From positions 64,001 through 128,000 of the forward strand of contig NZ_JAQNDL010000004.1 in the NCBI RefSeq assembly GCF_028368995.1: a DNA stretch of 64,000 bases, written 5' to 3'. Every line of letters starts with the position of its first letter. The first letter of the stretch is position 1. The stretch is from Nannocystis bainbridge (GTDB taxonomy: Bacteria > Myxococcota_A > Polyangia > Nannocystales > Nannocystaceae). Below are positions 1-61,925 of this stretch, one piece after another. A program made the position numbers and the translations under genes. The notes below the pieces were generated by a model, which saw nothing but the letters and a program-made list of their open reading frames with translations, searched no databases and was not told the DNA's origin.

Positions 1-342
1 CACGACGCGGGGGCGGCAGTGGGCGAGCAGGGCGTGCTGCTCGGGCGCGGTCAGCTTGTAGTCGATCGGGACCAGGACGGCGCCGGCCCACAGGGCCCCG
101 GTCGCGCCGATCAGCCACTTCGACTGGTTCTGCATGACGATCGCGCAGCGATCGCCGGGGCCGAAGCCGTGGACCTGCAGGCCGGCGGCGAACCGCTGAG
201 CGGCGACCCGCAGCTCGGCGAAGGTGTGGCGCGAGTTCTCGCGGTGGCGATCGGCCTCGATCAGCGCGGTCCGACTCTTGTACGTGATGGTGGCGTCACG
301 CAGCGCCTCGCCGAGGCAGGACAGCTTTCCCAGGTCGAGCAT
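1..342 (-). CDS. AMP-dependent acyl-CoA synthetase/ligase, N-terminal part (gene continues beyond window start)
   Basis: Minus-strand reading from ATG (cat at 340-342) gives MLDLGKLSCLGEALRDATITYKSRTALIEADRHRENSRHTFAELRV...LVPIDYKLTAPEQ, a typical acyl-CoA ligase N-terminus. The start abuts the ACP stop codon. Confidence 0.55.
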   Translation of the reverse strand, partial: MLDLGKLSCLGEALRDATITYKSRTALIEADRHRENSRHTFAELRVAAQRFAAGLQVHGFGPGDRCAIVMQNQSKWLIGATGALWAGAVLVPIDYKLTAPEQHALLAHCRPRVV

Positions 343-576
343 CTAGCGCCTCGCGTCGATCTTCTGCGCCAGGGCGGCGAACGTCTTGATGCCCTGCAGC
401 TCGTAGTCGGGCAGCTCGACGTCGAACTCGTCCTCGACGTCGGAGATGAGCTCGACGGCCTGGAAGCTGTCGATGCCGAGGTTCTCGAACAGGTCGTCCT
501 CGGCGCGGAGCTTGGCCGGGTCGGCGCCGAAGCGCTTGGCGGCGAGACGGATGAGGGTGCCTACGGTGTCGCTCAT
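343..576 (-). CDS. acyl carrier protein
   Basis: 77 aa with ACP-like LGIDSFQAVELISDVEDEFDVELPD around the phosphopantetheine Ser. ATGA overlap with the upstream gene. Confidence 0.8.
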   Translation of the reverse strand: MSDTVGTLIRLAAKRFGADPAKLRAEDDLFENLGIDSFQAVELISDVEDEFDVELPDYELQGIKTFAALAQKIDARR

Positions 577-4455: not shown

Positions 4456-4465
4456 GTTCGAAGGG

Positions 4466-5611: not shown

Positions 5612-5615
5612 GATG

Positions 5616-7301: not shown

Positions 7302-7329
7302 GGGTGTCCTCCGGTTCCTGTCCCCAAGG

Positions 7330-8007
7330 TCAGTCGCGATAATCGATGATCGGCCAGTCGGCGTCCTTGGCGCTGCGGCGCAGGACGAAGTCGGGGTTGA
7401 CCGCGCACGGGCCACCGACGCGCGACAGCAACAGCATGTCGGGGCCGTGGGCCCCGTAGGCGCTGCAGCGCGCCAGCTCGAGGTCGTGGGCGGCGGCGTA
7501 GTCGTCGAGCCAGCGGCCGCCGACGTTCGAGCCGATGACCGGATCGAGCAGTCTGCCGGTGGCCTCGCTGTCCTCGAACTCGATGCGGTTGTAGACCAGC
7601 TCGTCGTAGTGCTTGAGGTGGCGCGAGAGCGGCTTCATGATCGGCTCGATGCTGTCGGACAGCAGCACGACCCGCCGACCCTCGGCCTTGAGGCGCTTGA
7701 GCAGCTCGACGCCCTGATCGAGGATGGTGTCCTTCAGGACGTCCTCGGCGTACTCCTCGCACAGGACCTCGACGCGGTCCTGGCTCATGCCGCGGATGGC
7801 GAGGTGGGCCAGGCGGTGGGCCAGGGCGCGGTCGGTCTGCCCGAGCAGGCGGTGGACCGGGGCGGCCAGACCGACGAGGCCGAGGCGGACGGCCCGCTCG
7901 CCGAACTTCTTGGCGTTGCCGGCCAGATAGGCCGCCGCGCTGAGCACGCCGCGGGCGAGCAGGATGCCTTCGACGCGGACGAATGCTGCCGTGTTGGTTT
8001 GTGTCAT
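7330..8007 (-). CDS. HAD-IB family hydrolase (phosphoserine-phosphatase-like)
   Basis: MTQTNTAAFVRVEGILLARGV...VVLLSDSIEPIM...AYGAHGPDMLLL HAD motifs. The long upstream ORF extension is discarded. Confidence 0.75.
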   Translation of the reverse strand: MTQTNTAAFVRVEGILLARGVLSAAAYLAGNAKKFGERAVRLGLVGLAAPVHRLLGQTDRALAHRLAHLAIRGMSQDRVEVLCEEYAEDVLKDTILDQGVELLKRLKAEGRRVVLLSDSIEPIMKPLSRHLKHYDELVYNRIEFEDSEATGRLLDPVIGSNVGGRWLDDYAAAHDLELARCSAYGAHGPDMLLLSRVGGPCAVNPDFVLRRSAKDADWPIIDYRD

Positions 8008-8316: not shown

Positions 8317-8952
8317 GTGGCCGTGACCGCCCCGCTGCTCGTGTGCGCCGCCGAGGTCGAGGGCCGCGGGCTGGCCTCGCCGCTGTACCTCGGGGTCGGC
8401 AAGGTCGCGGCGGCGGTGGCGATGACGCGGGCGCTGCTCGAGCGGCGGCCGGCGTGGGTGCTGCTGTTCGGGGTCTGCGGCGCCTATCCCGAAGGACATG
8501 GCCCCGGGGGCAGGCTCGACGTCGGCGACGTGTGCCTGGTCGGCGACGAGTGGCTGGGCGACGAGGGGGTCGCGGTCGACGACGGGTTTTTGACGCTGGC
8601 GCAGCTGGGCCTGGGCTCGGTCGGGCCGCTCATGGCCGATGGCGGGCGCACGGCCGCGGCGGCGCGCTCGCTCGGGGCGCCGATCGTGCGCGGGGCGACG
8701 GTCAGCGGCTGCAGCGGGACGGACGCGAGCTCGCGGGCGCTGGCCGGGCGGACCGGGGCGACGGTGGAGACGATGGAGGGCGCAGCGGTGGCGTGGGCCT
8801 GCGCGGCCGCGGGGGTGCCGTGGGTGCAGCTGCGCTGCGTGAGCAACCGGACCGGCCAGCGCGCCGCTGGCGGGTGGGACCTGCCGCGCGCGGTGGCCGG
8901 GGTGCAGGCGGCGCTGCAGCGACTGCAGGCCGCAGACTGGGGGAACGAATGA
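8317..8952 (+). CDS. mqnB: futalosine hydrolase (MTA/SAH nucleosidase family, MqnB)
   Basis: MTAN-like ...VAVTAPLLVCAAEVEG...TMEGAAVAWACAAAGVPWVQLRCVSN. Start is uncertain. GTG 8317 follows GAGGTG; the alternatives are TTG 8221 or ATG 8227. Confidence 0.65.
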   Translation: MAVTAPLLVCAAEVEGRGLASPLYLGVGKVAAAVAMTRALLERRPAWVLLFGVCGAYPEGHGPGGRLDVGDVCLVGDEWLGDEGVAVDDGFLTLAQLGLGSVGPLMADGGRTAAAARSLGAPIVRGATVSGCSGTDASSRALAGRTGATVETMEGAAVAWACAAAGVPWVQLRCVSNRTGQRAAGGWDLPRAVAGVQAALQRLQAADWGNE

Positions 8953-9767
8953 GCGAGCCGCTGCCGATCGGGTTCTCGCCGTGTCCGAACGACACGTGGA
9001 TGTTCGACGCGCTGGTCCGGGTGCCGGAGTTCGTGCCGGGGCTGCGGCCGCTGCCGTGGCTGGCCGACATCGAGGCGCTCAACGAGCGCGCGCTGGCCGG
9101 CGAGGCGCCGCTGCCGGTGACGAAGCTGAGCGCGCACGGGCTGTATTGGGTCGAGCGCGACTACCTGGTCTTGCGGACAGGTGCGGCGCTGGGCCGCGGC
9201 TGCGGGCCGCTGGTGGTGGCCCGCGAGAAGGCCGAGCTGGCGGCGCTGGCCGGGCGCAAGATCGCCATCCCGGGGGCCTATACGACCGCGCACCTGCTGC
9301 TCCGCTGCTTCGCGCCGGCGTCGGCGACGGTGGTGCCGATGCGCTTCGATCGCATCATGCCGGCGGTGGCGGCCGGGGAGGTCGACGCGGGGCTGGTGAT
9401 CCACGAGGCGCGGTTCGTGTTCCGCGACCACGGGCTCGAGCAGGTGGCGGACCTCGGCGAGGTGTGGGAGGCGGCCACGGGGCTGCCGCTGCCGCTGGGG
9501 GTGATCGCGGCCCATCGCTCGCTGCCGGCCGGGCAGGTGCGCGCGGTCGAGGAGGCGATCGCCCGCTCGATCGCGGCGGCGGAGGCGGACCCGGCCGCGG
9601 CGTGGCCGTTCGTCAAGGCGCACGCGCAGGAGCTGAGCGACGAGGTGTGCCGGCAGCACATCGCGCTGTACGTCAACGAGTTCTCGCGCGACATGGGCGC
9701 GGAGGGCGCGGCGGCGCTCGAGGAGCTGCGGCGGCGCGGGCAGGCGGCCGGGCTGCTGCCGCGCTGA
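8949..9767 (+). CDS. mqnD: 1,4-dihydroxy-6-naphthoate synthase (MqnD)
   Basis: MSEPLPIGFSPCPNDTWMFDALV... MqnD signature. ATGA overlap with mqnB. The long ORF 8343-9767 upstream of the ATG is artefactual. Confidence 0.8.
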   Translation: MSEPLPIGFSPCPNDTWMFDALVRVPEFVPGLRPLPWLADIEALNERALAGEAPLPVTKLSAHGLYWVERDYLVLRTGAALGRGCGPLVVAREKAELAALAGRKIAIPGAYTTAHLLLRCFAPASATVVPMRFDRIMPAVAAGEVDAGLVIHEARFVFRDHGLEQVADLGEVWEAATGLPLPLGVIAAHRSLPAGQVRAVEEAIARSIAAAEADPAAAWPFVKAHAQELSDEVCRQHIALYVNEFSRDMGAEGAAALEELRRRGQAAGLLPR

Positions 9768-42730: not shown

Positions 42731-43957
42731 TCACGTCGGCGGGCCGAGCTTGTCGCCGACTTCGCACAGGAAGTGCGAGCTGCTGGCGCCCTTGCCGTTC
42801 ATCGGGAAGGCGAAGTAGCCGGTGAGCACGGGGGGCTGGACGTCCAGCTTCCAGTCGTAGAAGAGCGAGCAGCCAGCGCAGTTGGTGGTGCCGGGCTGAC
42901 CGGCGAAGATCTTGTCGGAGACCCAGTAGGGCTGGTCGAGGTCCGGGTTCGCGGGGTCGGGCTTGAGGGCCCACTGCGGGCAGTCCTCGCTGTTGAGCGG
43001 CTTGCCCACGCAGCTCTGGCCGGGGGTGACGGGGTAGATGCCGAGGATCGAGAGGTAGCCGGCGACGTCGCTGTCGACGTCGAGGTTCGGGGTGTAGTCG
43101 CCGGTGTCGTGGACCGCGCCGAAATCGGTTGCGCTCGCGGCGATGAAGGCGGCCCGCAGGTGCCGGTCGCTGCGCGGCGCGAGCAGCCGCAGGCCCCAGG
43201 TAGCGCACTTCTGCTCGGCCTCGGCCGCGGTGAGCGGCTGGGGCAGGAAGGTGTCGAGGTCGAGCACGGTGCCCGAGGCGTATTTTAGAAAGGAGTAACC
43301 GCCGCCGTCGGCCTCCATGTCGCACCAGGCGGTGAACATCAGGTCTTCGCGGCGGAGGACGTAGAGGCCAGTCGGGACCGCGTCGCCAAACGAGTTCTTG
43401 ATCTCGAGGCACGAGCTGGCGCGGGAGCAGTCGGCGAGGCAGCCGTAGTGCGGGTTGGGGTCGTCGCAGGTCTCGCCCTCGTCGGCCTGGACCATGGAGT
43501 CGCCGCAGCGCGGGGCCCAATCGTCGCAGTAGCGGCCGCACTGGCCGTACTTGCCGTTCTTGTGCTTGCCGTCGTCGCACAGCTCGTCGCCGGCCTTGAT
43601 CAGGCCGTCGCCGCAGACGTTCCAGCGGCAGGCGGAGGTGCACTCGGCGTCGTCGGCGTTGGCCTCGCCCTGATCGCAGAGCTCGGGCGGATCGATCTTG
43701 CCGTTGCCGCACGGGTCGGGCCCGGCGTCGGTGGTCGAGCCGCTGTCACTGTCGCCGTGGCCCGGGTCGACCGTGGTGGTCATGATGCCGGGGTAAGTGG
43801 TCGAGCCGTCGCTGCCGGGGCCGCTGCTGGTCGAGGACGCGGGCAGGGTCGGGTCGTTCTGGCCGGCGTTGCGATCGAGGCAGCCCGCGAGCAGCAGCGC
43901 CAACCCGCAGCGGCCCAAGACTCCGATCTGGACGCGAGGAGAGATGCGTGGGTGCAT
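42731..43957 (-). CDS. secreted lipoprotein with Myxococcus-type Cys-rich repeats and a fibrinogen-like C-terminal domain
   Basis: Lipobox LLAGC. Repeats CGNGKIDPPELCDQG and CGDGLIKAGDELCDDG are TIGR02232-like. The C-terminal LYVLRREDLMFTAWCDMEADGGGYSFL is fibrinogen-related-domain-like. Start ATG 43957. Confidence 0.65.
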   Translation of the reverse strand: MHPRISPRVQIGVLGRCGLALLLAGCLDRNAGQNDPTLPASSTSSGPGSDGSTTYPGIMTTTVDPGHGDSDSGSTTDAGPDPCGNGKIDPPELCDQGEANADDAECTSACRWNVCGDGLIKAGDELCDDGKHKNGKYGQCGRYCDDWAPRCGDSMVQADEGETCDDPNPHYGCLADCSRASSCLEIKNSFGDAVPTGLYVLRREDLMFTAWCDMEADGGGYSFLKYASGTVLDLDTFLPQPLTAAEAEQKCATWGLRLLAPRSDRHLRAAFIAASATDFGAVHDTGDYTPNLDVDSDVAGYLSILGIYPVTPGQSCVGKPLNSEDCPQWALKPDPANPDLDQPYWVSDKIFAGQPGTTNCAGCSLFYDWKLDVQPPVLTGYFAFPMNGKGASSSHFLCEVGDKLGPPT

Positions 43958-44118: not shown

Positions 44119-45318
44119 TTACTCGTTCGGGGTCGTCACGCGCTGCGGCTGGACACGAGAGCCGCGGAGCATGTCCTGGAACGGGTTGTCGTCGCGCCAC
44201 ACGTCGCCGGCGAGCATGCTGATGAGGCCCTTGCGCAGCATCGGGTCGGGGGTGCGGGCGAAGAACAGGTGCGACACCATGCGCGTGTGATAAAAGCGGC
44301 GGATCAGCTGTTCGAAGCTGACGTAGGCGACTTCCATCGACGCGTGCACGGGGGCCATGAGATCGGCCGCACCCTCGCGCCCAGCGGCGAGCGCGGGGAC
44401 GAGGGCGTCGACGGTGCGCTCGGCGCCCAACATCGCCAGCGAGACGCCGGAGGAGAACACGGGATCGAGGAAGGCGCAGGCGTCGCCGACGCAGGCCCAG
44501 CGCGGGCCGGAGGGGCGGGTGTTCTTGTAGCTCCAGTTGCGGATCGTCCGCGTGTCGCTGCGCCGGGCCCCGGCGGTGAGGCGGCGACACAGCGGGGAGG
44601 CGGCGAGCGCGGCCTCGAAGGCGTCGTCGTCGAGCTTGCCACGCCACTTGACGAGGCCGACGCTGAGGCGCCCGCCGTGCATCGGGATCAGCCAGTGCCA
44701 GCCGTCCTCGACGATCAGGACCTTGATGTTGCCCTGGTCGCCGAGCTCCTGGCGGACGTCGGGGGCGAGGTCGTCGAAGTGACAGAAGACGGCGGCGCGC
44801 CCGAGCTCGTGCAGCGGGGCGATCGTGCGGGCGCCGCGGCCGAGCATGGCGTCCTGGCCGGTGCAGTCGAGGAGGAAGCGGGCCCGGTGCTCGCCGCGGT
44901 CGCTGGTGACGCGCACGTGATCGTCGGCGATGGCGATGTCGGTGACGCGCTCGCGGAAGCGGATGTCGGCGCCGCGGCTGACGGCGACGTCGGCGAGCAT
45001 CTTGTCGAAGGCGGCGCGGTCGACCTGCCAGGCGTGCGCGGGGGTGCCGTCGAGGCCGTCGGCGAAGCTGAAGAACGCGTACTCGCCGGTGCGCTCGTCG
45101 ATGAACTCGGCGCCCTGCTTGTACTGCCAGCGCGTGCGATCCATGGCGACGCCGAGGCGGGCGAAGATCGGCAGGTCGATCGGCAGCAGCGACTCGCCGA
45201 TGTGGAAGCGCGGGAACACGTCCCGGTCGAGCGTGACGGCCCGGACGCCCGCCTGCGCGAGCAAGTTGGCGGCGGTCGAGCCGGCCGGGCCGGCCCCGAC
45301 GATCAGGACGTCGTGCAT
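44119..45318 (-). CDS. FAD-dependent halogenase (flavin-dependent, Trp-halogenase family)
   Basis: GAGPAGS FAD motif, halogenase WxWxIP motif (GWHWLIPM) and FxDPxFSxG (FLDPVFSSG). Confidence 0.7.
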   Translation of the reverse strand: MHDVLIVGAGPAGSTAANLLAQAGVRAVTLDRDVFPRFHIGESLLPIDLPIFARLGVAMDRTRWQYKQGAEFIDERTGEYAFFSFADGLDGTPAHAWQVDRAAFDKMLADVAVSRGADIRFRERVTDIAIADDHVRVTSDRGEHRARFLLDCTGQDAMLGRGARTIAPLHELGRAAVFCHFDDLAPDVRQELGDQGNIKVLIVEDGWHWLIPMHGGRLSVGLVKWRGKLDDDAFEAALAASPLCRRLTAGARRSDTRTIRNWSYKNTRPSGPRWACVGDACAFLDPVFSSGVSLAMLGAERTVDALVPALAAGREGAADLMAPVHASMEVAYVSFEQLIRRFYHTRMVSHLFFARTPDPMLRKGLISMLAGDVWRDDNPFQDMLRGSRVQPQRVTTPNE

Positions 45319-45325
45319 GACCGGG

Positions 45326-46048
45326 TCATACCATGCCGCCGTTGATGCCGATCACCTGACCGGTGATGTACGCGGCGGCGTCGCTGGCGAGGAAGGCGAC
45401 CACGGCGGCGACTTCGGGGGCGGTGCCCAGCCGCTGCGCGGGGATCCGCGGCATGACGTGCTCGAGCGGGACGTCCTTGATCATGTCGGTGTCGACGAGG
45501 CCGGGGGCGACGGCGTTGACGGTGACGCCCTTGCGAGCGAGCTCGAGCGCGAGGGATTTTGTCGCGCCGATGACGCCGGCCTTGGCCGCGGCGTAGGCGA
45601 CCTGGCCGCGGTTGCCGAGCTGAGCCGAGACGGAGCTCATGGTGATGATCCGGCCCCATTTGCGCCGCACCATCGGCATGATCACGGGGCGGGTGACGTT
45701 GTAGAAGCCGCCGAGGCTGGTCCGAAGGACAGCCTCCCAGTCGGCCCGCTCGAGCGCGGGGAACGGGGCGTCGCGGGCGATGCCGGCGTTGTTGACGACG
45801 ACCCCGAGCGGGCGCGGGTCGGCCAGGATCGCGGCCATGGCGGCGTCGGCGGCCGCGTCGTCGCCGACGTCGAAGCGGCTCAGCACGGCCTCGCCGCCAG
45901 CGGCGCGGATCCGGGCGGCGACGGCCTCGGCGGCGGCGTCGTCGCTGCGATAGTTGAGGACGATCGGGTGACCGGCGGCGGCGAGGGCCTCCGCGATCGC
46001 GGCGCCGATCCCTCGACTGGCGCCGGTGACGAGCGCGCGCGGCTTCAT
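45326..46048 (-). CDS. fabG: 3-oxoacyl-ACP reductase (FabG-like SDR)
   Basis: TGASRGIG, NNAG and the catalytic YAAAK. Confidence 0.85.
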   Translation of the reverse strand: MKPRALVTGASRGIGAAIAEALAAAGHPIVLNYRSDDAAAEAVAARIRAAGGEAVLSRFDVGDDAAADAAMAAILADPRPLGVVVNNAGIARDAPFPALERADWEAVLRTSLGGFYNVTRPVIMPMVRRKWGRIITMSSVSAQLGNRGQVAYAAAKAGVIGATKSLALELARKGVTVNAVAPGLVDTDMIKDVPLEHVMPRIPAQRLGTAPEVAAVVAFLASDAAAYITGQVIGINGGMV

Positions 46049-46500
46049 GCGGGGCTCCCTGCGGGGGTGGTGACGGTGGTGACGGGGGTGGTGGTCACGA
46101 CGGAGAGGATGGCCTCGGCCAGCGGCTGACCGCGGCGGGTGACGGCGGCCCGGTACTCGGCCATGGCGCCGGCGAACACGCGGGTGGCGACGATCTGCAG
46201 CGGGTCGCCGACGGCCAGGTGTTCGGCGTGCAGCTCGAAGTTGCGGCAGGCGGCGATGAGGCCGACGGCCGGCGGCTGACCGCTGGCGCGGGCGCCGAGG
46301 CCGGCGAAGGCGGCGATCGCCTGGGCCATGTACTCGAGCAGGGCCGAGGCGTGGACGCGGCCGTCGACGAGGAACAGGTTGCCCGGGTGGACGACGGCGG
46401 CGCAGGTGATGCCGTCGTCGTCGGCGGCGACGACCTCGTCGAGCAGCAGCATCGGCGGGCGCTGCGGGACCAGCTCGGCCACCGGCGGGAAGGCGGTCAT
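46045..46500 (-). CDS. hotdog-fold 3-hydroxyacyl-ACP dehydratase (FabZ/ApeP-like)
   Basis: 151 aa, PPMLLLDEVV...HPGNLF hotdog dehydratase pattern. Overlapping start and stop with its neighbours. Confidence 0.65.
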   Translation of the reverse strand: MTAFPPVAELVPQRPPMLLLDEVVAADDDGITCAAVVHPGNLFLVDGRVHASALLEYMAQAIAAFAGLGARASGQPPAVGLIAACRNFELHAEHLAVGDPLQIVATRVFAGAMAEYRAAVTRRGQPLAEAILSVVTTTPVTTVTTPAGSPA

Positions 46501-47297
46501 GCGCCGGCTCCGAGCGCGCACTGCCAGCCGACCGCGAGGTGCGGCTCGAGGGCGACGCGCGCCGCGGCGCCGGCGGCCAGGGCGTCGAGCAGGGCGATCG
46601 CGGGGGCGCACGGGCTGGCGGCCAGGGCGGCCGGGATGACGCGTGGCCCCGGGGACATGTCGCAGGGGCCATGTTCGAGGCGACATGTCCTCGCGGGCAT
46701 GTCGCTCGGGCCAGCCGCGGACAGGGCGAAGGCGGCGGCGAACGGGTCCCAGCGGCGGCCGGCGGCCAGCGGCTCGGGCAGCGGCTCCTCGGCGATCACG
46801 AGCACGACGTCGCCCTCGCCGGCGGCGACCAGGGCGGCGCACTCGAGCAGGCCCATGGCGAGGGTCGAGGGCCCGGCCGAGATGGCGGCGTTGCCGGCCC
46901 GGTTGCCGGTGGCGATCGAGACGTAGCCGGCGGCCGTGTTGTGGACGCTGTTGTGGAATTTGGTCGGCGACAGCGGCTCGCCGGCGACCAGCAGGGCGGC
47001 GAGCAGGTCGAGGGTGGTCCGGATCTCGCCGTAGACGGAGCCGTAGACGAAGGTGGCGGCGGCGCGATCGAGGCCGCCGTCGTGCAGGGCCTGGGCGGCG
47101 ACCTCGGCGGCCATGCGGGTGAGCAGGCTGGTGCGCCGGCGCATCATCGGCGGCAGCAGCTCGGCTCGGGGGGCGGCGTCGGCGGAGGTGACCTGTCCTT
47201 CGGGACAGGCGTCGGGCCGGGCCCTCCAGGCGGCGACGTCGGGGTAGCCGGGCGACCAGAAGCCGAGGCCGCGGACGGAAAAGGCGAGCGCGCTCAT
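46497..47297 (-). CDS. beta-ketoacyl synthase N-terminal-domain protein (chain-length-factor-like)
   Basis: KS-like fold with no active-site Cys context, 266 aa, translationally coupled to the KS gene. Carries an in-frame repeat-encoded segment, DMPARTCRLEHGPCDMSPG. Confidence 0.65.
   Translation of the reverse strand: MSALAFSVRGLGFWSPGYPDVAAWRARPDACPEGQVTSADAAPRAELLPPMMRRRTSLLTRMAAEVAAQALHDGGLDRAAATFVYGSVYGEIRTTLDLLAALLVAGEPLSPTKFHNSVHNTAAGYVSIATGNRAGNAAISAGPSTLAMGLLECAALVAAGEGDVVLVIAEEPLPEPLAAGRRWDPFAAAFALSAAGPSDMPARTCRLEHGPCDMSPGPRVIPAALAASPCAPAIALLDALAAGAAARVALEPHLAVGWQCALGAGA
46652..46706. repeat. GGACATGTCC-family units inside a CDS, in frame
   Basis: gggacatgtcgcaggggccatgttcgaggcgacatgtcctcgcgggcatgtcgc sits within the CLF-like KS gene. 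Confidence 0.7.
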
Positions 47298-48475
47298 GCC
47301 GGGCCCCCGACGAGGACGCTGCAGTTGCTGCCGCCGAACGCGAACGAGTTGCTGAGGGCGGCGCGGGTCGGGACGTCGCGGCGGGCGGTGACGACGTCGA
47401 CGGCGAGGCTGTCGTCGAGCGGGTCGGCGCCGACGCTGGCGGGCAGGTAGCCGCCGGCGATGGCGTCGACGACGAAGGCGACCTCGGTGGCGCCGGCGGC
47501 CCCGAGCATGTGGCCGGTGTAGCCCTTGGTGGCGACCACGGCGGGCGCGCGGGCGCCGGCGAACACGGCCCGGATCGCGGCGCTCTCCATGCTGTCGTTC
47601 TGCTTGGTGCCGGTGCCGTGGGCGTTGACGTGGTCGACGTCGGCGGCGGACAGGCCGGCGTGTTGCAGGGCGCGCTCCATCGCCATGCGGGCGCCGAGGC
47701 CCTCGGGGTGCGGGCTGGTCATGTGGTAGGCGTCGGAGCTCTCGCCGACGCCGAGCAGGCGGGCCGGGCCTTCACCTGTCCTTTCGACCAGGAGCAGGGC
47801 GGCGCCCTCGCCGATGTTGATGCCGGCGCGCTCGCGCGAGAAGGGGCGACATGGCTTCGAGGACAGGACCTCGAGGCCAGCGAAGCCGCGCACGGTGAGG
47901 CGACACAGGCTGTCGACGCCGCCGACGAGCACGGCGTCGCAGAGGTCGGCGGCGAGCAGGCGCTGGGCCGAGGCGAACACCTTGGCGCTCGAGGAGCAGG
48001 CGGTCGAGACGACGTAGGCCGGGCCGCCGAGGCCGCCGCCGAGCACGCGCGCGAGGTGGAGGACGGCGTCGAGGGCGTGCGAGTGCTCGACGTCGTAGTG
48101 GGGCGGGAGGGCGCCGCCGTGGGCGTGAGCGTGGGCGTAAGCGGTCTCGCTGGCCTCGATGCCGCCGGTGCTGGTGCCGAGCACGATGGCGACCCGATGG
48201 GCGCCCCAGCGAGCGCTCGCGCGGGCGAGCGGGGCCTGCAGCTCGGCGAGGGCGACGGCGGCGATGCGCGCCTGGCGAGTGTCGCGGACGACGCCGAGAG
48301 ACGCGGGCAGCGGCGGCAGCGGGGTCGGGATGGCGCCGACGACCGCGTCGAGCTCGAACTCGGCCGGGCACGGGCCGAGGCCGGAGCGACCGGCCCGCAG
48401 GGCGGCGAGCACGGCGGCGGTGCTGTCGCCCATGCCGTTGCAGAGGGCCATGGCGGTGATCGGGAAGGGCTGCAT
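47294..48475 (-). CDS. beta-ketoacyl-ACP synthase (KAS I/II-like)
   Basis: Active-site VVSTACSSS, HGTGT and the Gly-rich C-terminus NSFAFGGSN. Confidence 0.85.
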   Translation of the reverse strand: MQPFPITAMALCNGMGDSTAAVLAALRAGRSGLGPCPAEFELDAVVGAIPTPLPPLPASLGVVRDTRQARIAAVALAELQAPLARASARWGAHRVAIVLGTSTGGIEASETAYAHAHAHGGALPPHYDVEHSHALDAVLHLARVLGGGLGGPAYVVSTACSSSAKVFASAQRLLAADLCDAVLVGGVDSLCRLTVRGFAGLEVLSSKPCRPFSRERAGINIGEGAALLLVERTGEGPARLLGVGESSDAYHMTSPHPEGLGARMAMERALQHAGLSAADVDHVNAHGTGTKQNDSMESAAIRAVFAGARAPAVVATKGYTGHMLGAAGATEVAFVVDAIAGGYLPASVGADPLDDSLAVDVVTARRDVPTRAALSNSFAFGGSNCSVLVGGPA

Positions 48476-48502
48476 GGCGCGGCGAGGCGAAAGGCGCGGC
48501 GG

Positions 48503-49762
48503 TCAGAGGCCGGGGGCCGGGAAGGCGCGCAGGAACTCGCGCACGCGGCCGCGGTGGACGTCGCAGCGAGCGTCGTCGGCCTTCTCGACGGCGAGGGTGA
48601 TGGCGTCGGCGATCAGGTCGGCGACGACGGGCATGTGGTGGGCCTCGATGCCGCGCGAGGTGATGGCGGCGAGGCCGATCCGCAGGCCCGAGGGATCGAA
48701 CGGCTTGCGCGGGTCGAAGGGGATGGCGTTGGCGTTGAGCTCGATGCCGCAGCGGTTGAGCACGCGGGCGACGTGGCGGCCGCCTTGACCGGTGGCGGTG
48801 AGGTCGAGCAGCAGCAGGTGATTGTCGGTGCCGCCGGAGACGAGCGTGTGGCCGCGCGCGATCAGGGCCTCGGCGAGGGCGCGGGCGTTGGCGACGATGT
48901 GGTGGGCGTAGTCGCGGAAGCTCGGCTGCAGCGCCTCGCGGAAGGCGACGGCCTTGGCGGCGGTGGCGTGGCAGTGCGGGCCGCCCTGCAGGCCGGGGAA
49001 CACGGCCTTGTCGATCGCGGCGGCGTGCTCGGCCTTGCTGAGGATCAGGCCGCCGCGCGGGCCCCGGAGGGTCTTGTGCGTGGTGGTGGTGACGACGTCG
49101 GCGTGCGGCACCGGGCTCGGGTGAGCGCCGCCGGCGACGAGGCCGGCGATGTGCGCGATGTCGGCCGCGAGGTAGGCCCCGACCTCGCGCGCGATCGCGG
49201 CGAAGCCGGCGAAGTCGAGCTGGCGCGGGTAGGCGGAGTGACCGACCCAGATGAGCTTGGGCCGGTTGGCCAGCGCGAGGTCGCGGACCTCGTCGAGGTC
49301 GATGCGGTGGTCGTCGCGGCGGACGCCGTACTGGACGGCCTTGTAGTAGATGCCGGTGGCGCTGACCTTCCAGCCGTGGGTGAGGTGACCGCCCGCGGGG
49401 AGGGCGAGACCCATGATGGTGTCGCCGGTCTGGCACAGGGCCAGCAGCGCGGCCAGGTTGGCCGGCGAACCGCTGTACGGCTGGACGTTGGCGTGATCGG
49501 CCCCGAACAGCTCGCGCGCGCGGGCGACGGCGAGCGACTCGATCGGGTCGATGAAGTCCATGCCCTCGTAGTACCGCTTGCCCGGATAACCCTCGGCGTA
49601 CTTGTTGGTGAGGCTGGTGCCGGTGGCCGCGAGCACGGCCTTCGACGCGTAGTTCTCGCTGGCGATGAGGCGCAGGCTGTCGCGCTGACGCGCGTCCTCC
49701 TGCTCGATCAACGCGAAGATCTCGGGGTCGGCGGCGGAGAGCTCGGGATCGCGGGCGTGCAT
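48503..49762 (-). CDS. glyA: serine hydroxymethyltransferase
   Basis: SHMT signature TTTTHKTLRGPRGG. Confidence 0.9.
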   Translation of the reverse strand: MHARDPELSAADPEIFALIEQEDARQRDSLRLIASENYASKAVLAATGTSLTNKYAEGYPGKRYYEGMDFIDPIESLAVARARELFGADHANVQPYSGSPANLAALLALCQTGDTIMGLALPAGGHLTHGWKVSATGIYYKAVQYGVRRDDHRIDLDEVRDLALANRPKLIWVGHSAYPRQLDFAGFAAIAREVGAYLAADIAHIAGLVAGGAHPSPVPHADVVTTTTHKTLRGPRGGLILSKAEHAAAIDKAVFPGLQGGPHCHATAAKAVAFREALQPSFRDYAHHIVANARALAEALIARGHTLVSGGTDNHLLLLDLTATGQGGRHVARVLNRCGIELNANAIPFDPRKPFDPSGLRIGLAAITSRGIEAHHMPVVADLIADAITLAVEKADDARCDVHRGRVREFLRAFPAPGL

Positions 49763-53969: not shown

Positions 53970-55583
53970 ATGATCGCGGGCCCGCCCTTGATTGAGCCAG
54001 CGTCCCCGCGGCTGGTGCCGGTGTGGCGCGAGCTGCTGTGTGACGGCATCACCCCCATCGAGGTCTACGCCCGCTTGCGGGCCTACGCGCGCGGCGGCGG
54101 CTCCGGGCCGCCCGACCTGCCGGGCGTAAGCTTCTTGCTCGAGAGCGCGGGCGGGGCCGGCGAGCGGTGGGCCCGCTACAGCGTGGTCGGCGTCGGCGCG
54201 CGGGCCCACGTGCGCGGGGTGTGGAACGGCTACGACCTCGACGTGACGATCACCCCGGGGCCGGGCTTCTCGCTGCCGCCGGGGGTCGAGGCCAAGAGCC
54301 GCGGGCTGGCCGGCATCGCCGCGCTGCAGCGGGCCTACGAGAGCCCGCCGCGGCCCGATCTGCCGCGCTTCTGGGGCGGGCTCGTCGGCGTGTGGGGCCA
54401 CGACGCGGCGCGGGTGTTCGATCCGATCCCGGCCGTACCTGGCCTTTCGGTCATGTCGAGCGATCTGCCGGCGGTCGAGCTGGTGGCGAGCGACACGCTG
54501 GTGGTGTTCGACAACTTCTCCAACCGCGTGCGCGTGCTGGCGACCGCCTGCGCCGACAGCGAGGGCGGGCCGGAGGCGGCCGAGGCGGCGGCGCGGGCCC
54601 GCGTCGACGCGGTCGCGCGGGCGCTGCACGGGCCGACGGTGCTGGGGCCGCGGCGCGTGCCCGAGGTGGCGGCGCCGGCGACCGAGGTGGCGGCGCCGTG
54701 GTCGCGCGAGAAGTACCGCGCCTCGGTGGCGGAGGCGCGCGAGCACATCATGGCCGGCGACATCTTCCAGGTCGTGCTGTCGCAGCGGTTCGTCAGCCGG
54801 CGCGACGGCATCGACCTGCTCGACGTCTACCGCATGCTGCGGGTCGGCAACCCGGCGCCGTACATGTACCTGTTCGACCTGCCGGCCGCGGCGCTGACGG
54901 GCGCGTCGCCGGAGGTGCTGGTCCGCTGCGACCGCGACGCGCTGGCGCCGGCGGTGACGGGGGCGGCGAGCGGCGAGGTGCCGCCGCAATCGGGCCTGCG
55001 CGTGACCGTGCGGCCGATCGCGGGCACGCGCCGGCGCGGCGCCGACGCGATCGAGGACGAGGCGCTGGCCAGCGAGCTGCTCGCCGATCCGAAGGAGCGC
55101 GCCGAGCACCTGATGTTGGTCGACCTCGGGCGCAACGACCTCGGGCGCGTCAGCGTGGCCGGCAGCGTGCGGGTGTCGGAGTCGTTCTCGATCGAGCGCT
55201 ACAGCCGGGTGATGCACATCGTCAGCGAGGTGCAGGGCGAGCTGCGGCCGGAGCTGACGGCGCTCGACGCCCTGCGCGCGACCTTCCCGGCGGGCACGCT
55301 GAGCGGGGCGCCGAAGATCCGCGCGCTGCAGATCATCGACGCGCTCGAGCCGGCGCCGCGCGGCTGGTACGGCGGCGCGGTGGGCTACCTCGGCTACGAC
55401 GGCGGAGCCGACTTCGCCATCTGCATCCGCTCGCTGGTCGCCGTCGGCGAGGAGTTCCGGGTCCAGGCCGGCGCGGGGGTCGTGTACGACTCGTCGCCCG
55501 AGGGCGAGGACAACGAGTGCCACGTCAAGGCGAGCGCGGTGCTGCGCGCGATCGCGGCGGCGGCCGAAGGAGGTGCAGCGTGA
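53970..55583 (+). CDS. trpE: anthranilate synthase component I
   Basis: Chorismate-binding enzyme motifs (LLESAGG, GAVGYLGYDG). Confidence 0.9.
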   Translation: MIAGPPLIEPASPRLVPVWRELLCDGITPIEVYARLRAYARGGGSGPPDLPGVSFLLESAGGAGERWARYSVVGVGARAHVRGVWNGYDLDVTITPGPGFSLPPGVEAKSRGLAGIAALQRAYESPPRPDLPRFWGGLVGVWGHDAARVFDPIPAVPGLSVMSSDLPAVELVASDTLVVFDNFSNRVRVLATACADSEGGPEAAEAAARARVDAVARALHGPTVLGPRRVPEVAAPATEVAAPWSREKYRASVAEAREHIMAGDIFQVVLSQRFVSRRDGIDLLDVYRMLRVGNPAPYMYLFDLPAAALTGASPEVLVRCDRDALAPAVTGAASGEVPPQSGLRVTVRPIAGTRRRGADAIEDEALASELLADPKERAEHLMLVDLGRNDLGRVSVAGSVRVSESFSIERYSRVMHIVSEVQGELRPELTALDALRATFPAGTLSGAPKIRALQIIDALEPAPRGWYGGAVGYLGYDGGADFAICIRSLVAVGEEFRVQAGAGVVYDSSPEGEDNECHVKASAVLRAIAAAAEGGAA

Positions 55584-56290
55584 GCGCGAGCGACAACACC
55601 GCGGGCCCGGCCGTCGACACCGCCGCCCCGCCGCTGCCGGGCGGCCAGCGCCTGCGCCCCGGCGGCGCGGCGCGGCCCGGCTGCCGCGTGCTGGTGATCG
55701 ACAACTACGACTCGTTCACCTTCAACCTGGTGCAGTACCTGCTGCAGCTGGGGGCGGTGGTCGATGTCCACCGCAACGACGCGGTCCAGCTCGAGCAGGT
55801 GCTGGCCGACGCGCCGAGCCACATCGTCCTGTCCCCGGGGCCAGGTACGCCGGCCGACAGCGGGGTGTGCCAGGACCTGTGCCGCCGGCTGGCCGAGGCA
55901 GACGCGCCGGCGATCCCGGTGCTCGGGGTGTGCCTCGGCCACCAGACGATGTGCGAGGTGCTGGGCGCGCGGGTCGAGCGGGCCGGGCGGATCATGCACG
56001 GCAAGCTGTCGCCGATGCTGCACGACGGCACCGGGGTGTTCGCCGGGCTGCCGTCGCCGTTCATGGCCACGCGCTACCACAGCCTGGTCGCGGTCGAGAG
56101 CACGCTGCCGGCCTGCCTGATCCCGAACGCGCGCACCGACGCCGGCGAGCTGATGGGCGTGCGCCACGCGACGCGGCCGATGCACGGGGTCCAGTTCCAC
56201 CCGGAGTCGGTGCTCAGCGAGCACGGTCACGCGATGCTGCGCACCTTCCTCGAGATACATGTCCCATCGAACATGGCGGTAAAGACATGA
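55580..56290 (+). CDS. trpG: anthranilate synthase component II (glutamine amidotransferase)
   Basis: VIDNYDSFTFNLVQYL, GVCLGHQ and HPES. GTG start in a GTGA overlap with trpE, preceded by GAAGGAGG. Confidence 0.9.
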   Translation: MSASDNTAGPAVDTAAPPLPGGQRLRPGGAARPGCRVLVIDNYDSFTFNLVQYLLQLGAVVDVHRNDAVQLEQVLADAPSHIVLSPGPGTPADSGVCQDLCRRLAEADAPAIPVLGVCLGHQTMCEVLGARVERAGRIMHGKLSPMLHDGTGVFAGLPSPFMATRYHSLVAVESTLPACLIPNARTDAGELMGVRHATRPMHGVQFHPESVLSEHGHAMLRTFLEIHVPSNMAVKT

Positions 56291-57354
56291 CCGAAGGGGC
56301 AGGGGCAGGGGCGCTGCGGCGCGGGCTGGGCCGCCTGACCCGCGGCGAGGCGCTGGACGAGGCCGAGGCGCTGGCGATCTTCCGCGAGATCGTGGCCGGC
56401 GCGGCCGACCCGGCGCAGATCGGCGGGCTGCTGGTCGGACTGGCGATCCGCGGCGAGACGGCGGCGGTGATCGCGGGCGCGGTGCGGGCGATGCGAGAGG
56501 CGGTGGTGCCGGTGCCGCTGCGCGAGGCCGGGGCGATCGACACCTGCGGGACCGGCGGCAGCGGGGTGGCCCGGCGCAACGTGTCGACGGCGGTGGCGAT
56601 CGCGGCGGCGGCGTGCGGGGTCCGGGTGGCCAAGCACGGCAACCGCGGGATCTCGAGCCCGTGCGGCTCGGCGGACGTGCTGGCGGCGCTCGGCGTCGAC
56701 ATCACGGCCCCGCCCGAGCGCGTCGGCCGGTGCGTCGACGAGGTCGGCGTCGGCTTCATGTTCGCGCCGAACCTGCACCCGGCGATGCGCCACGCGGCCG
56801 GCCCGCGCAAGGCGCTCGGGCTGCGCACGCTGTTCAACCTGGTCGGGCCGATGTGCAACCCGGCGGGGGTGCGCCGGCAGGTGATCGGCGTGTTCGACCC
56901 GGGCAAGGTCGAGGCGATGGCGGCGGCCCTGGGCGCCCTCGGCAGCGAGCGGGTGTTCGTGGTCCACGGCCGGTTCGGGGGCGCGGACCGGCCCGGGATC
57001 GACGACCTCAGCCCCGAGGGCCCGAGCACGATCGCCGAGTGGCACCGCGGCGCGCTGCGCACGTACACGCTGCGCCCGGCCGACGCCGGACTGCCGGAGG
57101 TGCCGATCGCGGCGATCGCCGGCGACGACGCGGCCGGCAACGCGAGCGCGCTGCGGGCCCTGCTGGCCGGCGAGCCGGGGGCCTACCACACAAGTGTGCA
57201 GTACAGCGGCGCGCTGGCCCTGCTGGCGGCCGGGGACGACGATATCTCGACGCTGCCGGCCAAGGCGGGGGCGATCGGCGCGGCGCTCGAAGACGGGCGG
57301 GCCGCGGCGGTGCTCGACCGACTCGTCGCCGCCAGCCGCGCTGCGCTACCCTGA
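56287..57354 (+). CDS. trpD: anthranilate phosphoribosyltransferase
   Basis: DTCGTGG and NLVGPMCNPAG. ATGA overlap with trpG. Confidence 0.9.
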   Translation: MTEGAGAGALRRGLGRLTRGEALDEAEALAIFREIVAGAADPAQIGGLLVGLAIRGETAAVIAGAVRAMREAVVPVPLREAGAIDTCGTGGSGVARRNVSTAVAIAAAACGVRVAKHGNRGISSPCGSADVLAALGVDITAPPERVGRCVDEVGVGFMFAPNLHPAMRHAAGPRKALGLRTLFNLVGPMCNPAGVRRQVIGVFDPGKVEAMAAALGALGSERVFVVHGRFGGADRPGIDDLSPEGPSTIAEWHRGALRTYTLRPADAGLPEVPIAAIAGDDAAGNASALRALLAGEPGAYHTSVQYSGALALLAAGDDDISTLPAKAGAIGAALEDGRAAAVLDRLVAASRAALP

Positions 57355-57362
57355 GGCAGGTC

Positions 57363-58169
57363 ATGAGCGACAAAGGCAGCACGTACCTCGACAAGATCCT
57401 GGCCGCCAAGCGGGCCGAGCTCGCCGCCCCCCGGGCGACCCGCTCGGGGGCGCTGACCGACCGCGAGCTGCTCGAGCTCGGGGCCCGGCTGCCGCGCCCG
57501 CGCGACTTCATCGGCGCGCTGCGCGAGGGCCCGCGACCGGGCATCATCGCCGAGTTCAAGCGCGCGTCGCCGAGCGCGGGGGCGCTGCGCGAGGGCGCCG
57601 ACGCGCGCCAGATCGCGATGCTCTACGCGGCGGGCGGCGCGGCGTGCATGAGCGTGCTGACCGACAAGCACTTCCAGGGCTCGCTCGACGATCTCCGGTC
57701 GGTGCGCCAGAGCGTGTCGCTGCCGCTGCTGTGCAAGGACTTCATCCTCGAGAAGACGCAGATCGTCGAGGCCAAGCGGGTCGGGGCCGACTGCGTGCTG
57801 CTGATCGTGGCCGCCCTGCCGGTGCCGCAGCTGCGCCAGCTGATCGAGTTCGCCCACACGCTCGAGCTGCAGGTGCTGTGCGAGACCCGCGACGAGGCGG
57901 AGATCGATCGCGCGATGGCGGCCGGGGCCAAGCTGATCGGGGTCAACTCGCGCGACCTGCAGACGTTCGAGCTCGACCCGGACCGCGCGGCCAAGCTGCG
58001 CAAGTACGTGCCCAAGAGCTTCACGTACGTGGCCGAGAGCGGGGTGCGCAGCATCGACGACGCGCTCCGCCTGCGCGACTCGGGCGCCGACGCGCTGCTG
58101 ATCGGCAGCTACTTCATGACAGCCGAGGAGCCCGGCGAGGCGCTGCGCGAGCTGGTGATGGCGCTGTGA
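57363..58169 (+). CDS. trpC: indole-3-glycerol phosphate synthase
   Basis: IIAEFKRASPS and GINSRDL. Confidence 0.9.
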   Translation: MSDKGSTYLDKILAAKRAELAAPRATRSGALTDRELLELGARLPRPRDFIGALREGPRPGIIAEFKRASPSAGALREGADARQIAMLYAAGGAACMSVLTDKHFQGSLDDLRSVRQSVSLPLLCKDFILEKTQIVEAKRVGADCVLLIVAALPVPQLRQLIEFAHTLELQVLCETRDEAEIDRAMAAGAKLIGVNSRDLQTFELDPDRAAKLRKYVPKSFTYVAESGVRSIDDALRLRDSGADALLIGSYFMTAEEPGEALRELVMAL

Positions 58170-58233
58170 GGCTGGCGCTGGGGACATGTTCGCAAGGACA
58201 GGCCCTGCGGGACAGGTCGGTGCCGGCGTGGCG

Positions 58234-58860
58234 GTGAAGCTCAAGGTGTGCGGGGTGACCCGCGCCGAGGACCTGGCCGCCTGCGTCGAGCTGGGGGTCG
58301 ACGCGGTCGGGATCAACCTGTGGAGTGGGTCGCGCCGCGGGCTGACGCTGGCCGAGGCGCAGGCGCTGCTGCAGGCGGTCGATCCGCCGCGCTCGCTCGA
58401 GCGGGTCGGGGTGTTCGTCGAGCCGACCGCGGAGGAGGTGCGCCGCGCGGCCGAGACGCTGGCGCTCGACCTCGTGCAGATCGTCGGAGCGCAGGAGGTC
58501 GCAGGCTTCGGGCTGCCGTACCTGTGGGTGGTCCGCGGGACGCCAGCGCTGGCAGAGCTGCTGCCGCCGTCACCAGGCCCGGCGCGGGCGCTGCTCGACG
58601 CCGCGGTGCCGGGGTACGGGGGCGCGGGCCAGACGACCGACTGGGGCTGGGCCGCGGCGGCGGTGCAGCAACTGGCAGGGCTCGAGGTGTGGCTAGCGGG
58701 CGGGATCACGGCCGAGAACGCGGCGCAGGCGATCGCGCAGGTCCGCCCGGCGGGGCTCGATGTGGCCAGCGGGACGGAGCTGCCAGGAGCCCGCCGCGGT
58801 GAGAAGGACCGCGTCGCCATCGCGGCGCTGCTGGCAGCCTGTCGCGGCGAGACGGGCTGA
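58234..58860 (+). CDS. trpF: phosphoribosylanthranilate isomerase
   Basis: VKLKVCGVT...DAVGINL. Start is uncertain: GTG 58234, GTG 58228 or ATG 58186. The upstream ATG lies in a repeat cluster. Confidence 0.75.
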   Translation: MKLKVCGVTRAEDLAACVELGVDAVGINLWSGSRRGLTLAEAQALLQAVDPPRSLERVGVFVEPTAEEVRRAAETLALDLVQIVGAQEVAGFGLPYLWVVRGTPALAELLPPSPGPARALLDAAVPGYGGAGQTTDWGWAAAAVQQLAGLEVWLAGGITAENAAQAIAQVRPAGLDVASGTELPGARRGEKDRVAIAALLAACRGETG

Positions 58861-60728: not shown

Positions 60729-61346
60729 TCAGCAGTCGAGCTCGTCGGAGCCGTCGGGGCAGTCCGGGGCCATGTCGCACTTCCAGGACGCCTGGATCTC
60801 GGTGCCGTCGGTGCAGGTGAAGGCCTCGAGGCCGCAGCCGGTGACCTCGTCGGAGCCGTCGGCGCAGTCGGGGACCTCGTCACAGGCCCACGCCTCGGGG
60901 ATCTCCTTCTTGTTGTCGCCGGTGCAGGTGAAGGCCGCGAGGCCGCAGCCGCTGACCTCGTCGGAGGCGTCGGGGCAGTCGGGGTTCTCGTCGCAGACCC
61001 AGGCGGGGTTCTCGAGCAGGGTGCCGTCGCTGCAGACGAAGCCCTCGCCAGTGGTGCCGGCGGTCGCGTCGGTGGAGGAGTCGGTCGCCTCGCTGGTGCT
61101 GGTCGGCGCGTCGGTGGTGGTCGGCGCGCTGGTGCCCGAGTCCGTGCCGGTCGAGTCGTCCGTATCGGCGCTGGTGCCGGTGGTCGCTTCGTCGGTGGTG
61201 CCGGAGGTGCTCGTGGTCGTGCTGGTCTGCGGGCCGATGTTGGTATCGGTGAATCCGTCACCGAGGTTGATCGTGCACCCGGCTGTCGCGAGGCCCTGGC
61301 TCATGAGGGCGGCGACGGACAAAAATTTGGCGAGGTCGATGTTCAT
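60729..61346 (-). CDS. lipoprotein with three LDL-receptor class A-like repeats
   Basis: Lipobox ATAGC, a Thr/Ser-rich linker, then three copies of C.DG..I...W.CD...DC.DGSDE..C. Confidence 0.65.
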   Translation of the reverse strand: MNIDLAKFLSVAALMSQGLATAGCTINLGDGFTDTNIGPQTSTTTSTSGTTDEATTGTSADTDDSTGTDSGTSAPTTTDAPTSTSEATDSSTDATAGTTGEGFVCSDGTLLENPAWVCDENPDCPDASDEVSGCGLAAFTCTGDNKKEIPEAWACDEVPDCADGSDEVTGCGLEAFTCTDGTEIQASWKCDMAPDCPDGSDELDC

Positions 61347-61424
61347 CGTGGCGGGGAATGTGCCACGGGCCGGCGCGCAGGGGCGCGCGCGGCCCACGAG
61401 CACACGCCCGCACGCGCGCGCGAT

Positions 61425-61925
61425 TCAGGCCGGTACGAGGCGGACGGTGACCTCTGCGCTCGGATCGAACGGCGAGCCCTTGACGTCGGCGATGCACTTG
61501 ACGACGAGCCGCACGCCCGGGTCGCGCGTGGCAGCGTTGGGGTCGGGGAAGCCGTTGCTCGCGAGGATCTTGGCGAGGTCGACGTCGCTCACCAGCCACG
61601 GCTGGGTGATGACCTGGCCAGGCTTGAGGTCGCACGGCATCTTGAGGCAGCCGTCCGAGTAGCTGACCTTCGGATCGGGATCCTTCTCGGCGACGGCGAG
61701 GAAGGGCGACTCGACGTCGTCCTTCTTGATGTACAGCCACACCTCGTATTTGGTCGCCAGCAGGGTGCAGTCCTGCTGGGCGGTGATCACCATCGTGCCC
61801 TTGAGCACCGAGTCGGTGACCGGGAAGGTGGCGGTCGCCGCGGGTTGACGCTCGATGACGGTGATGGCGACGCTCGCCATGTTCTTGCCGCCGAGGAACT
61901 GCTTGGCCTTGTCGAAGAATCCCAT
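61425..61925 (-). CDS. hypothetical protein
   Basis: Starts MGFFDKAKQFLGG. Lower GC than its surroundings. No confident domain. Confidence 0.45.
   Translation of the reverse strand: MGFFDKAKQFLGGKNMASVAITVIERQPAATATFPVTDSVLKGTMVITAQQDCTLLATKYEVWLYIKKDDVESPFLAVAEKDPDPKVSYSDGCLKMPCDLKPGQVITQPWLVSDVDLAKILASNGFPDPNAATRDPGVRLVVKCIADVKGSPFDPSAEVTVRLVPA

Follow-up and report, generated by a model that had tools for sequence, protein, structure and literature searches.

Type II polyketide synthase (PKS) pathways of the aryl-polyene (APE) and xanthomonadin type are the described systems against which we compare a cassette of five genes at positions 44119-48475 of a 64,000-nucleotide stretch of Nannocystis bainbridge DNA (assembly GCF_028368995.1, contig NZ_JAQNDL010000004.1, positions 64,001 to 128,000; "the window" below). 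The cassette encodes a ketosynthase (KS), a chain-length-factor (CLF)-like protein, a hotdog dehydratase (DH), a ketoreductase (KR) and a predicted flavin-dependent halogenase (HAL). The canonical APE clusters of E. coli CFT073, Xenorhabdus doucetiae and Acinetobacter baumannii (ApeA-R; structures 6QSP, 6QSR and 7F28) have a co-directional KS-DH-KR core, as does the window, and their ApeO:ApeC pair, ApeP and ApeQ match window proteins; their PRK09184-type acyl carrier protein (ACP), LolA, MMPL and DUF3261 proteins are also present in the genus Nannocystis. They are, however, single operons of about 18 genes in which apeC lies far from apeO, a second KS (ApeR) is present and there is no halogenase, whereas in the window the CLF gene adjoins the KS gene, ApeR is absent, a halogenase gene is appended and the cassette lies on another contig than the ApeH-ApeI gene. 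The canonical clusters also have two ACPs, against one in the main APE locus of Nannocystis described below. The missing ApeR-type KS is no obstacle, since ApeO-ApeC alone makes full-length polyene in vitro (PMC8358021) and an E. coli apeR deletion strain keeps its pigment (PMC8253772).

A split pathway of this kind is known from Azoarcus sp. BH72. There arcuflavin, a xanthomonadin-like pigment, is made from two unlinked loci, and insertions in either one abolish it and leave the mutants colourless (PMC3949708, Schoner et al. 2014). Locus 1 has arcK (KS), arcJ (KS-N domain), arcI (DH) and arcH (KR), with the halogenase gene arcA further along; locus 2 (arcM-arcW) has a methyltransferase, an exporter, LolA, an acyltransferase, a further DH, an AMP-ligase and an ACP. 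The Nannocystis arrangement resembles it in the split, in the KS-CLF-DH-KR gene order and in the position of the halogenase in the KS locus. The KS locus of Azoarcus further includes genes for a glycosyltransferase, an acyltransferase and a XanB2 chorismatase that supplies a hydroxybenzoate starter, whereas the Nannocystis cassette consists of five enzymes only, and the main locus of Nannocystis has an aromatic amino-acid lyase in place of XanB2. ApeH and ApeI are fused in Nannocystis, unlike in Azoarcus, and the phylum, Myxococcota, is different. The features peculiar to the Nannocystis lineage are the minimal five-gene cassette, the ApeH-ApeI fusion, a lyase instead of a chorismatase, and the loss of ApeR.

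The closest relatives are the marine Nannocystaceae Enhygromyxa salina and Plesiocystis pacifica, for which APE clusters were reported by antiSMASH (PMC6226438). They have in common with Nannocystis the ACP, ApeH/I, GT2, acyltransferase, lyase, LolA, MMPL and DUF3261 genes; in Nannocystis, by contrast, the KS block has been relocated, the second KS (KS2) has been lost, and the block ends in HAL and a DUF4215 lipoprotein gene. We consider it quite probable, on the sequence comparisons set out below, that the cassette holds the chain-elongation and halogenation genes of a split APE/xanthomonadin-type type II PKS pathway, detached from the rest.

The five genes of the cassette

Genes were called by a prediction based on GC content at third codon positions (GC3), together with the list of open reading frames (ORFs), in a window of 72% GC. 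The cassette consists of five intact ORFs, all on the minus strand and in the same direction. The KS/CLF, CLF/DH and DH/KR junctions are 4-nt ATGA overlaps and the KR/HAL gap is 7 nt. The original prediction, which had described five co-directional, translationally coupled minus-strand genes, was right to the nucleotide in its coordinates, with no gap or overlap above 7 nt. Its placing of glyA directly upstream of the KS gene on the same strand is likewise correct, the end of glyA and the KS start being 27 nt apart. The ORFs are long, have coding-type GC3 (about 0.95) and reach family E-values as low as 1e-132, so that chance origin is not an issue, and Pfam and NCBIfam confirm every domain that the original prediction had named.

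The KS has the catalytic triad Cys160, His251 and His286. Against NCBIfam PRK09185 it scores 440 bits, above the cutoff of 407, and it falls well below the cutoffs of FabF (TIGR03150, 221 bits against 494) and FabB (NF005935, 130 bits against 630). Its best matches in the PDB are AbApeO (7f28_B, 256 bits, E 7.9e-75) and XdApeO (6qsp_A, 243 bits, E 4.4e-71), both codes being assigned to Ape proteins in PMC8358021; FabF structures score at most 164 bits (E about 1e-47), and FabB and ApeR structures about 105-108 bits (ApeR 7f27, E 9e-30). We therefore assign it as an ApeO-type elongating KS, distinct from FabF and FabB. The CLF-like protein is a shortened KS N-domain with neither the active-site Cys nor the C-terminal domain, and its best PDB matches are the ApeC chains 7f28_A (9e-12) and 6qsp_B (2.7e-11), by which it is assigned as the ApeC-type partner in a predicted KS:CLF pair. 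Its C-terminal tail is poorly conserved and holds copies of the GACATGTC repeat, to which we return below. A grouping of the KS/CLF pair with housekeeping FabF/FabB would have told against the aryl-polyene assignment of the original prediction; ApeO and ApeC are instead the closest by score.

The DH scores 41 bits against PF22817 (ApeP-like; cutoff 27), and its single PDB match is ApeP, 6qsr_B. With the KS and CLF closest to ApeO and ApeC, and the DH to ApeP, the aryl-polyene or xanthomonadin-type assignment has held up. FabZ-type active sites consist of a His from one subunit and a Glu from the other. In an alignment of the window DH, its orthologues, E. coli FabZ and the ApeI-like domain from an ApeH-ApeI fusion protein of N. 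bainbridge, the ApeP-like proteins are six residues shorter at the GHFPGKP motif of FabZ and carry Arg or Ala in the His column; the window DH lacks the HxxxxPxxPG motif and has Arg in that column, and it keeps the FabZ-type Glu, E56 in LLEYMAQ (FabZ motif LxEAMAQ). The ApeI-like domain (PF22818, in WP_272087714.1) carries GHFEGRPVLPGV, with the His, but is without the Glu. Because the site in FabZ pairs the two residues, the window DH and the distal ApeI domain look like complementary half-sites of one dehydratase, which fits the ApeI:ApeP heterocomplex reported for Xenorhabdus, as cited in passages of PMC8358021 and PMC8253772. An ApeP-like protein in the window and an ApeI-like domain on another contig of the same species are what a two-component ApeI:ApeP dehydratase would call for, whereas neither a KS below the FabF and FabB cutoffs nor a DH lacking the FabZ His-Glu dyad is what a housekeeping type II fatty-acid synthase would have.

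With 327.7 bits the KR clears the NCBIfam NF004200 (FabG) cutoff of 273; two APE/flexirubin-associated models, fabG_rel TIGR01831 (293 bits) and flexirubin FlxB (275 bits), rank next but stay below their cutoffs. It has the motifs TGASRGIG, NNAG and Y152xxxK156, and we assign it as an ApeQ/FabG-type 3-ketoacyl-ACP reductase.

HAL is 100% identical to WP_272091247.1 of Nannocystis bainbridge. It contains GAGPAG at residues 8-13 (GxGxxG), K67, which aligns with K76 of CndH, GWHWLIP at 206-212 (WxWxIP at 207-212) and FLDPVFSSG at 283-291 (FxDPxFSxG), and these motif residues are invariant in 10 homologues of 53-68% identity. WxWxIP is regarded as the motif that separates flavin halogenases from monooxygenases. 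The diagnostic motifs named in the original prediction are thus present, and so is the catalytic Lys, whose absence would have spoken against a halogenase. The best PDB match is 3nix (4e-45, full length), an uncharacterised flavoprotein of Cytophaga hutchinsonii, and all of the further matches are halogenases: 8zop, CndH (3e1t, 8e-37), CmlS, Bmp2, ChlB4 and PltA. With CndH, CmlS and PltA (E 1e-31 to 1e-37) it has the FAD fold, the Lys, WxWxIP and FxxPxxSxG in common, but at 399 aa it falls short of their 450-590 aa, the C-terminal extension seen in CndH and CmlS being missing. HAL resembles the halogenases that act on carrier-protein-bound substrates.

The distal locus and the cassette in relatives

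No ACP, acyltransferase, ligase or exporter was found within about 35 kb of the cassette in Pfam scans, in agreement with the original prediction that none is adjacent and that the sole ACP of the window lies at 343-576; across essentially all predicted window genes a PP-binding domain was seen only there, and no further APE component was found. The original prediction had advised searching the rest of the genome for an APE-like ligase, and there is one: the ApeH-ApeI fusion WP_272087714.1, encoded on a 2.0-Mb contig, while HAL is on a contig of 755,881 bp. Our probe for the main loci of Nannocystaceae was the ligase-ApeI fusion of a related locus, L003, described below. A scan of contigs with the peptide patterns LAAWQRGH and LVIHD[TA]DE missed the cultured Nannocystis, which were recovered by protein search.

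As proxies for the N. bainbridge main locus we used that of N. pusilla (L030/L031), whose ApeH-ApeI protein, P0284, is 86% identical to WP_272087714.1, and that of a metagenome-assembled genome (MAG) of Nannocystis (L020). The N. pusilla locus encodes an ACP, an unannotated protein of about 200 aa, ApeH/I, GT2, a Lip_A acyltransferase, an aromatic lyase, a 4HBT thioesterase, LolA_3, MMPL and DUF3261, and no KS was found within 10 kb of it. Its ACP passes the APE-type PRK09184 cutoff (107 bits against 70). The Nannocystis MAG has the same KS-less layout, ending after DUF3261. The APE-type ACP and the lipid-attachment and export genes are absent from the window and are seen at the N. pusilla locus, the export set also in the MAG. 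The presence of an aromatic amino-acid lyase, not a chorismatase, suggests a coumarate- or cinnamate-type starter. We also observed at the N. pusilla locus an extra KR of the short-chain dehydrogenase/reductase type (L030 8111-8890, L031 1847-2626), 40% identical to the window KR and divergent from the ACP gene, and the single ACP and the protein of about 200 aa occupy the place where Enhygromyxa has two ACPs.

The ACP at 343-576 was considered as a partner for the cassette and rejected, as it has no PRK09184 match and its operon is without LolA, MMPL and DUF3261. It is also below every AcpP/ACP cutoff, and so appears to be neither the primary ACP nor a likely APE partner. No KS and no APE hallmarks were found in its operon (window 1-7947), which may make a fatty aldehyde, a fatty alcohol or a modified lipid.

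In relatives the cassette occurs both next to the main cluster and alone. In L003, a 9.5-Mb Myxococcales MAG (HAL 54% identical), KS-CLF-DH-KR-KS2-HAL-methyltransferase adjoins a full APE cluster with DUF3261, MMPL, LolA, an aromatic lyase, an AMP-ligase fused to an ApeI-like dehydratase, and two ACPs. Main loci in Nannocystaceae run ACP-ACP-ApeH/I-GT2-acyltransferase-lyase-LolA-MMPL-DUF3261, and in Enhygromyxa salina, Plesiocystis pacifica and other Nannocystaceae and Myxococcales MAGs, KS-CLF(-DH-KR-KS2) follows directly after DUF3261, with 55-60% identity to the window in the KS and 45-50% in the CLF; the Enhygromyxa loci end before the position where a halogenase would lie. Stand-alone five-gene cassettes are found at L001/L002, L005, L006 and L032 (HAL identity 56-69%; 56-91% for stand-alone cassettes overall), and one planctomycete has a similar detached block.

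The stand-alone cassettes at L001/L002, L005, L006 and L032 are followed, after HAL, by one or two homologues of the predicted Cys-rich DUF4215/fibrinogen-like lipoprotein (YCDxxxxGGGW) whose gene follows HAL in the window, though their outer flanks differ. This gene lies 90-240 nt from HAL, is absent from the contiguous clusters seen, and has moved with the cassette: compared with L005, a related metagenomic genome, the KS gene, the DUF4215 gene and the four between them are inverted as one block, while glyA, a Ser/Thr kinase gene and trpEGD are collinear (44119-49762 in the window against 6771-13857 in L005). The glyA gene of L005 lies past the DUF4215 gene, on the opposite strand. A functional link between glyA and the cassette was accordingly rejected, the adjacency being an incidental product of a lineage-specific inversion.

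Proposed interdependence of the two loci and alternative readings

We infer cooperation between the loci, the starter unit, the halogenation and the product from gene content and homology, and the pathway might run as follows. The distal lyase would make an aryl acid, probably p-coumarate from tyrosine, which the adenylating half of the ApeH-ApeI fusion would load onto the dedicated APE-type ACP. The window KS:CLF heterodimer, of ApeO:ApeC type, would then extend the chain iteratively with malonyl units; after each condensation the window KR (ApeQ type) would reduce the beta-keto group, and a heteromeric dehydratase, with the Glu of the ApeP-like window protein and the His of the distal ApeI-like domain, would remove water to give a conjugated polyene. 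HAL may chlorinate or brominate the carrier-bound aryl or aryl-polyene intermediate, and at the distal locus the thioesterase, the glycosyl- and acyltransferases, the LolA-like protein, the MMPL transporter and the DUF3261 protein would join the acid to a lipid anchor and carry it to the outer membrane. On this scheme the product would be an APE lipid that is halogenated and probably primed with coumarate. If the dehydratase is indeed built from two half-sites, the cassette could not complete an elongation cycle on its own, and the two loci look mechanistically interdependent.

Several points weigh against parts of this reading. The half-site argument rests on our own alignment, in which the E. 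coli FabZ sequence was entered by hand; the DH also changes fast, with 47% identity to its L005 counterpart and a ratio of nonsynonymous to synonymous substitution rates (dN/dS) of 0.74-1.2. The content of the N. bainbridge distal locus is deduced from one protein and from synteny with N. pusilla. The best matches of the distal lyase, BagA-type tyrosine ammonia-lyase and HutH, are both below cutoff, and the residues at its selectivity positions are F-H. The NCBIfam matches of HAL are likewise all below cutoff (CmlS 151 bits against 900, a geranylgeranyl-reductase family 103 against 159), and to our knowledge no halogenase of this APE-associated clade has been biochemically characterised.

The original prediction had suggested a cassette that borrows the ACP of primary metabolism. 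On such a view the five genes would need no APE main locus, and housekeeping AcpP and FabD would serve a complete pathway to a halogenated polyene or fatty-acyl lipid. This would account for the physical isolation of the cassette, which is probably co-transcribed with glyA across the 27-nt gap. Stand-alone cassettes do recur in several Myxococcota MAGs and in the planctomycete with no ACP nearby, and AcpP can partly replace ApeF as malonyl carrier in E. coli (PMC8253772). The cassette, however, provides nothing for priming, loading, release or export, the catalytic His motif missing from its DH is found in the distal ApeI domain, and in sister genera orthologous cassettes adjoin the main cluster. 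The species has the ApeH-ApeI protein, and the KS-less APE locus of the genus would otherwise be non-functional; in Azoarcus both unlinked loci are needed for one pigment. Since the ACP, ligase and exporter locus exists elsewhere in Nannocystis and the DH appears to need ApeI, this part of the original prediction has found no support, and we regard full independence as quite improbable. Still harder to credit is a non-functional relic left by the break-up of a cluster. The cassette is detached, it has lost the second, ApeR-type KS of the contiguous versions, its DH and CLF tail change fast and repeat copies lie inside the CLF gene, all as a relic might show. Against this, the five ORFs are intact, the ATGA coupling and every catalytic motif are kept, lineages in which HAL identity is as low as 56% keep the stand-alone architecture, and no KS is encoded at the main locus of Nannocystis. 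The dN/dS values between window and L005 (KS 0.22, KR 0.22, CLF 0.35, HAL 0.37) are no higher than that of the glyA control (0.44), relative to which alone they should be read, as GC3 bias compresses dS and makes them semi-quantitative; together with the intact motifs they argue against decay, and a relic seems to us highly improbable.

Whether the fifth gene halogenates is a more serious question. It might instead encode a flavin monooxygenase or reductase, or a silent halogenase, with a non-halogenated APE lipid as product: its sub-cutoff NCBIfam matches include geranylgeranyl-reductase and QhpG/LodB-type monooxygenase families, its nearest structure, 3nix, is catalogued as a flavoprotein/dehydrogenase of uncharacterised function, and arcuflavin is not described as halogenated in the passages considered here, though arcA is annotated as a halogenase. 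But K67, WxWxIP and FxDPxFSxG are present and invariant across the clade, the PDB matches after 3nix are bona fide halogenases (CndH, CmlS, PltA, Bmp2 and ChlB4), and halogenase genes stand beside the KS-CLF pair in brominated xanthomonadin clusters (PMC3691225). On balance we think a non-halogenating fifth gene unlikely, but it is the alternative to which we give the most weight. A fuller evolutionary account, in which the Nannocystis module was excised from a contiguous APE cluster, lost ApeR and became a six-gene mobile unit with the lipoprotein, and would with the distal locus make the first halogenated, coumarate-primed aryl-polyene lipid of the Myxococcota, seems to us improbable; if it were so, the DUF4215 lipoprotein might help to place or use the pigment at the cell surface.

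Cluster finders would label the cassette an incomplete or atypical type II PKS, and the distal locus an APE cluster devoid of a KS. If the two halves belong to one split pathway, as we prefer to think, joining them predicts a halogenated aryl-polyene pigment of the outer membrane in Nannocystis, a genus mined for natural products; the practical value lies in annotation and genome mining. The putative His and Glu half-sites on different contigs offer a clear genetic handle on the cooperation of the loci. Split APE clusters and APE-associated halogenases are already documented, and the understanding of APE biosynthesis is unchanged.

Repeats and other features of the window

The cassette and the other features are listed in the table. 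The neighbours of the cassette are housekeeping genes: glyA, a Ser/Thr kinase with TPR repeats, a trpE-G-D-C-F run, sarcosine-oxidase-like genes and maf. A promoter and terminator scan gave nothing informative in the 72% GC DNA.

Table. Features of the window and of related loci (positions are those of the window unless a locus is named).
Feature	Position	Strand	Details
KS	47294-48475	-	393 aa; PF00109 + PF02801
CLF-like protein	46497-47297	-	266 aa; PF13723 Ketoacyl-synt_2, E 1.3e-38
Hotdog DH	46045-46500	-	151 aa; PF22817 ApeP-like
KR	45326-46048	-	240 aa; adh_short_C2 / KR Pfam
Flavin-dependent HAL (predicted)	44119-45318	-	399 aa; PF04820 (Trp_halogenase)
glyA	48503-49762	-	PF00464, E 4.5e-149
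Cys-rich DUF4215/fibrinogen-like predicted lipoprotein	42731-43957	-	DUF4215, myxo_disulf repeat, NF040941 GGGWT_bact; lipobox LLLAG|C
DUF4215/fibrinogen-like lipoproteins of related loci	L001 11434-13941; L005 11350-12540; L006 11323-13836; L032 11454-13934		YCDxxxxGGGW; after HAL
Carrier-protein operon	1-7947	-	partial adenylase, ACP, enoyl-CoA hydratase, FadD-like adenylase, pyruvyl-transferase-like protein, two NAD_binding_4/thioester-reductase proteins, HAD-IB hydrolase
GGACATGTCC copies	9889, 28536, 34844, 42620, 42704, 50642, 60636		10-bp palindrome
Copies related to GGACATGTCC	9876, 46654, 46682, 52972		46654 and 46682 are the GACATGTC copies in the CLF-like tail
Futalosine-pathway menaquinone genes	8317-9767	+	PNP_UDP_1 hydrolase; VitK2_biosynth MqnA/D-type protein
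trpE-G-D-C-F run	53970-58860	+	
Protein with low-density lipoprotein (LDL)-receptor class A repeats (predicted)	60729-61346	-	205 aa; three repeats, PF00057, E 1.5e-23

A 10-bp palindrome, GGACATGTCC, occurs seven times in the window against 0.07 copies expected. The copies are mostly intergenic, often in clusters of degenerate GACATGT-like units; those in the C-terminal tail of the CLF-like protein encode "...DMP...CDMSPGP". We observed further that the linker of the Nannocystis ApeH-ApeI protein contains repeated RDMS/KDMS peptides, which would be encoded by the same motif. The palindrome may be a repetitive extragenic palindromic (REP)-like repeat or one bound by a regulator, which protein linkers can accommodate in frame.

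Elsewhere in the window there are two genes of the futalosine pathway of menaquinone biosynthesis. Near the far end lies a predicted gene for a protein with three LDL-receptor class A repeats; the call is uncertain, as it overlaps a plus-strand ORF (60772-61662) of similar coding score. The LDL-receptor class A domain is uncommon in bacteria.

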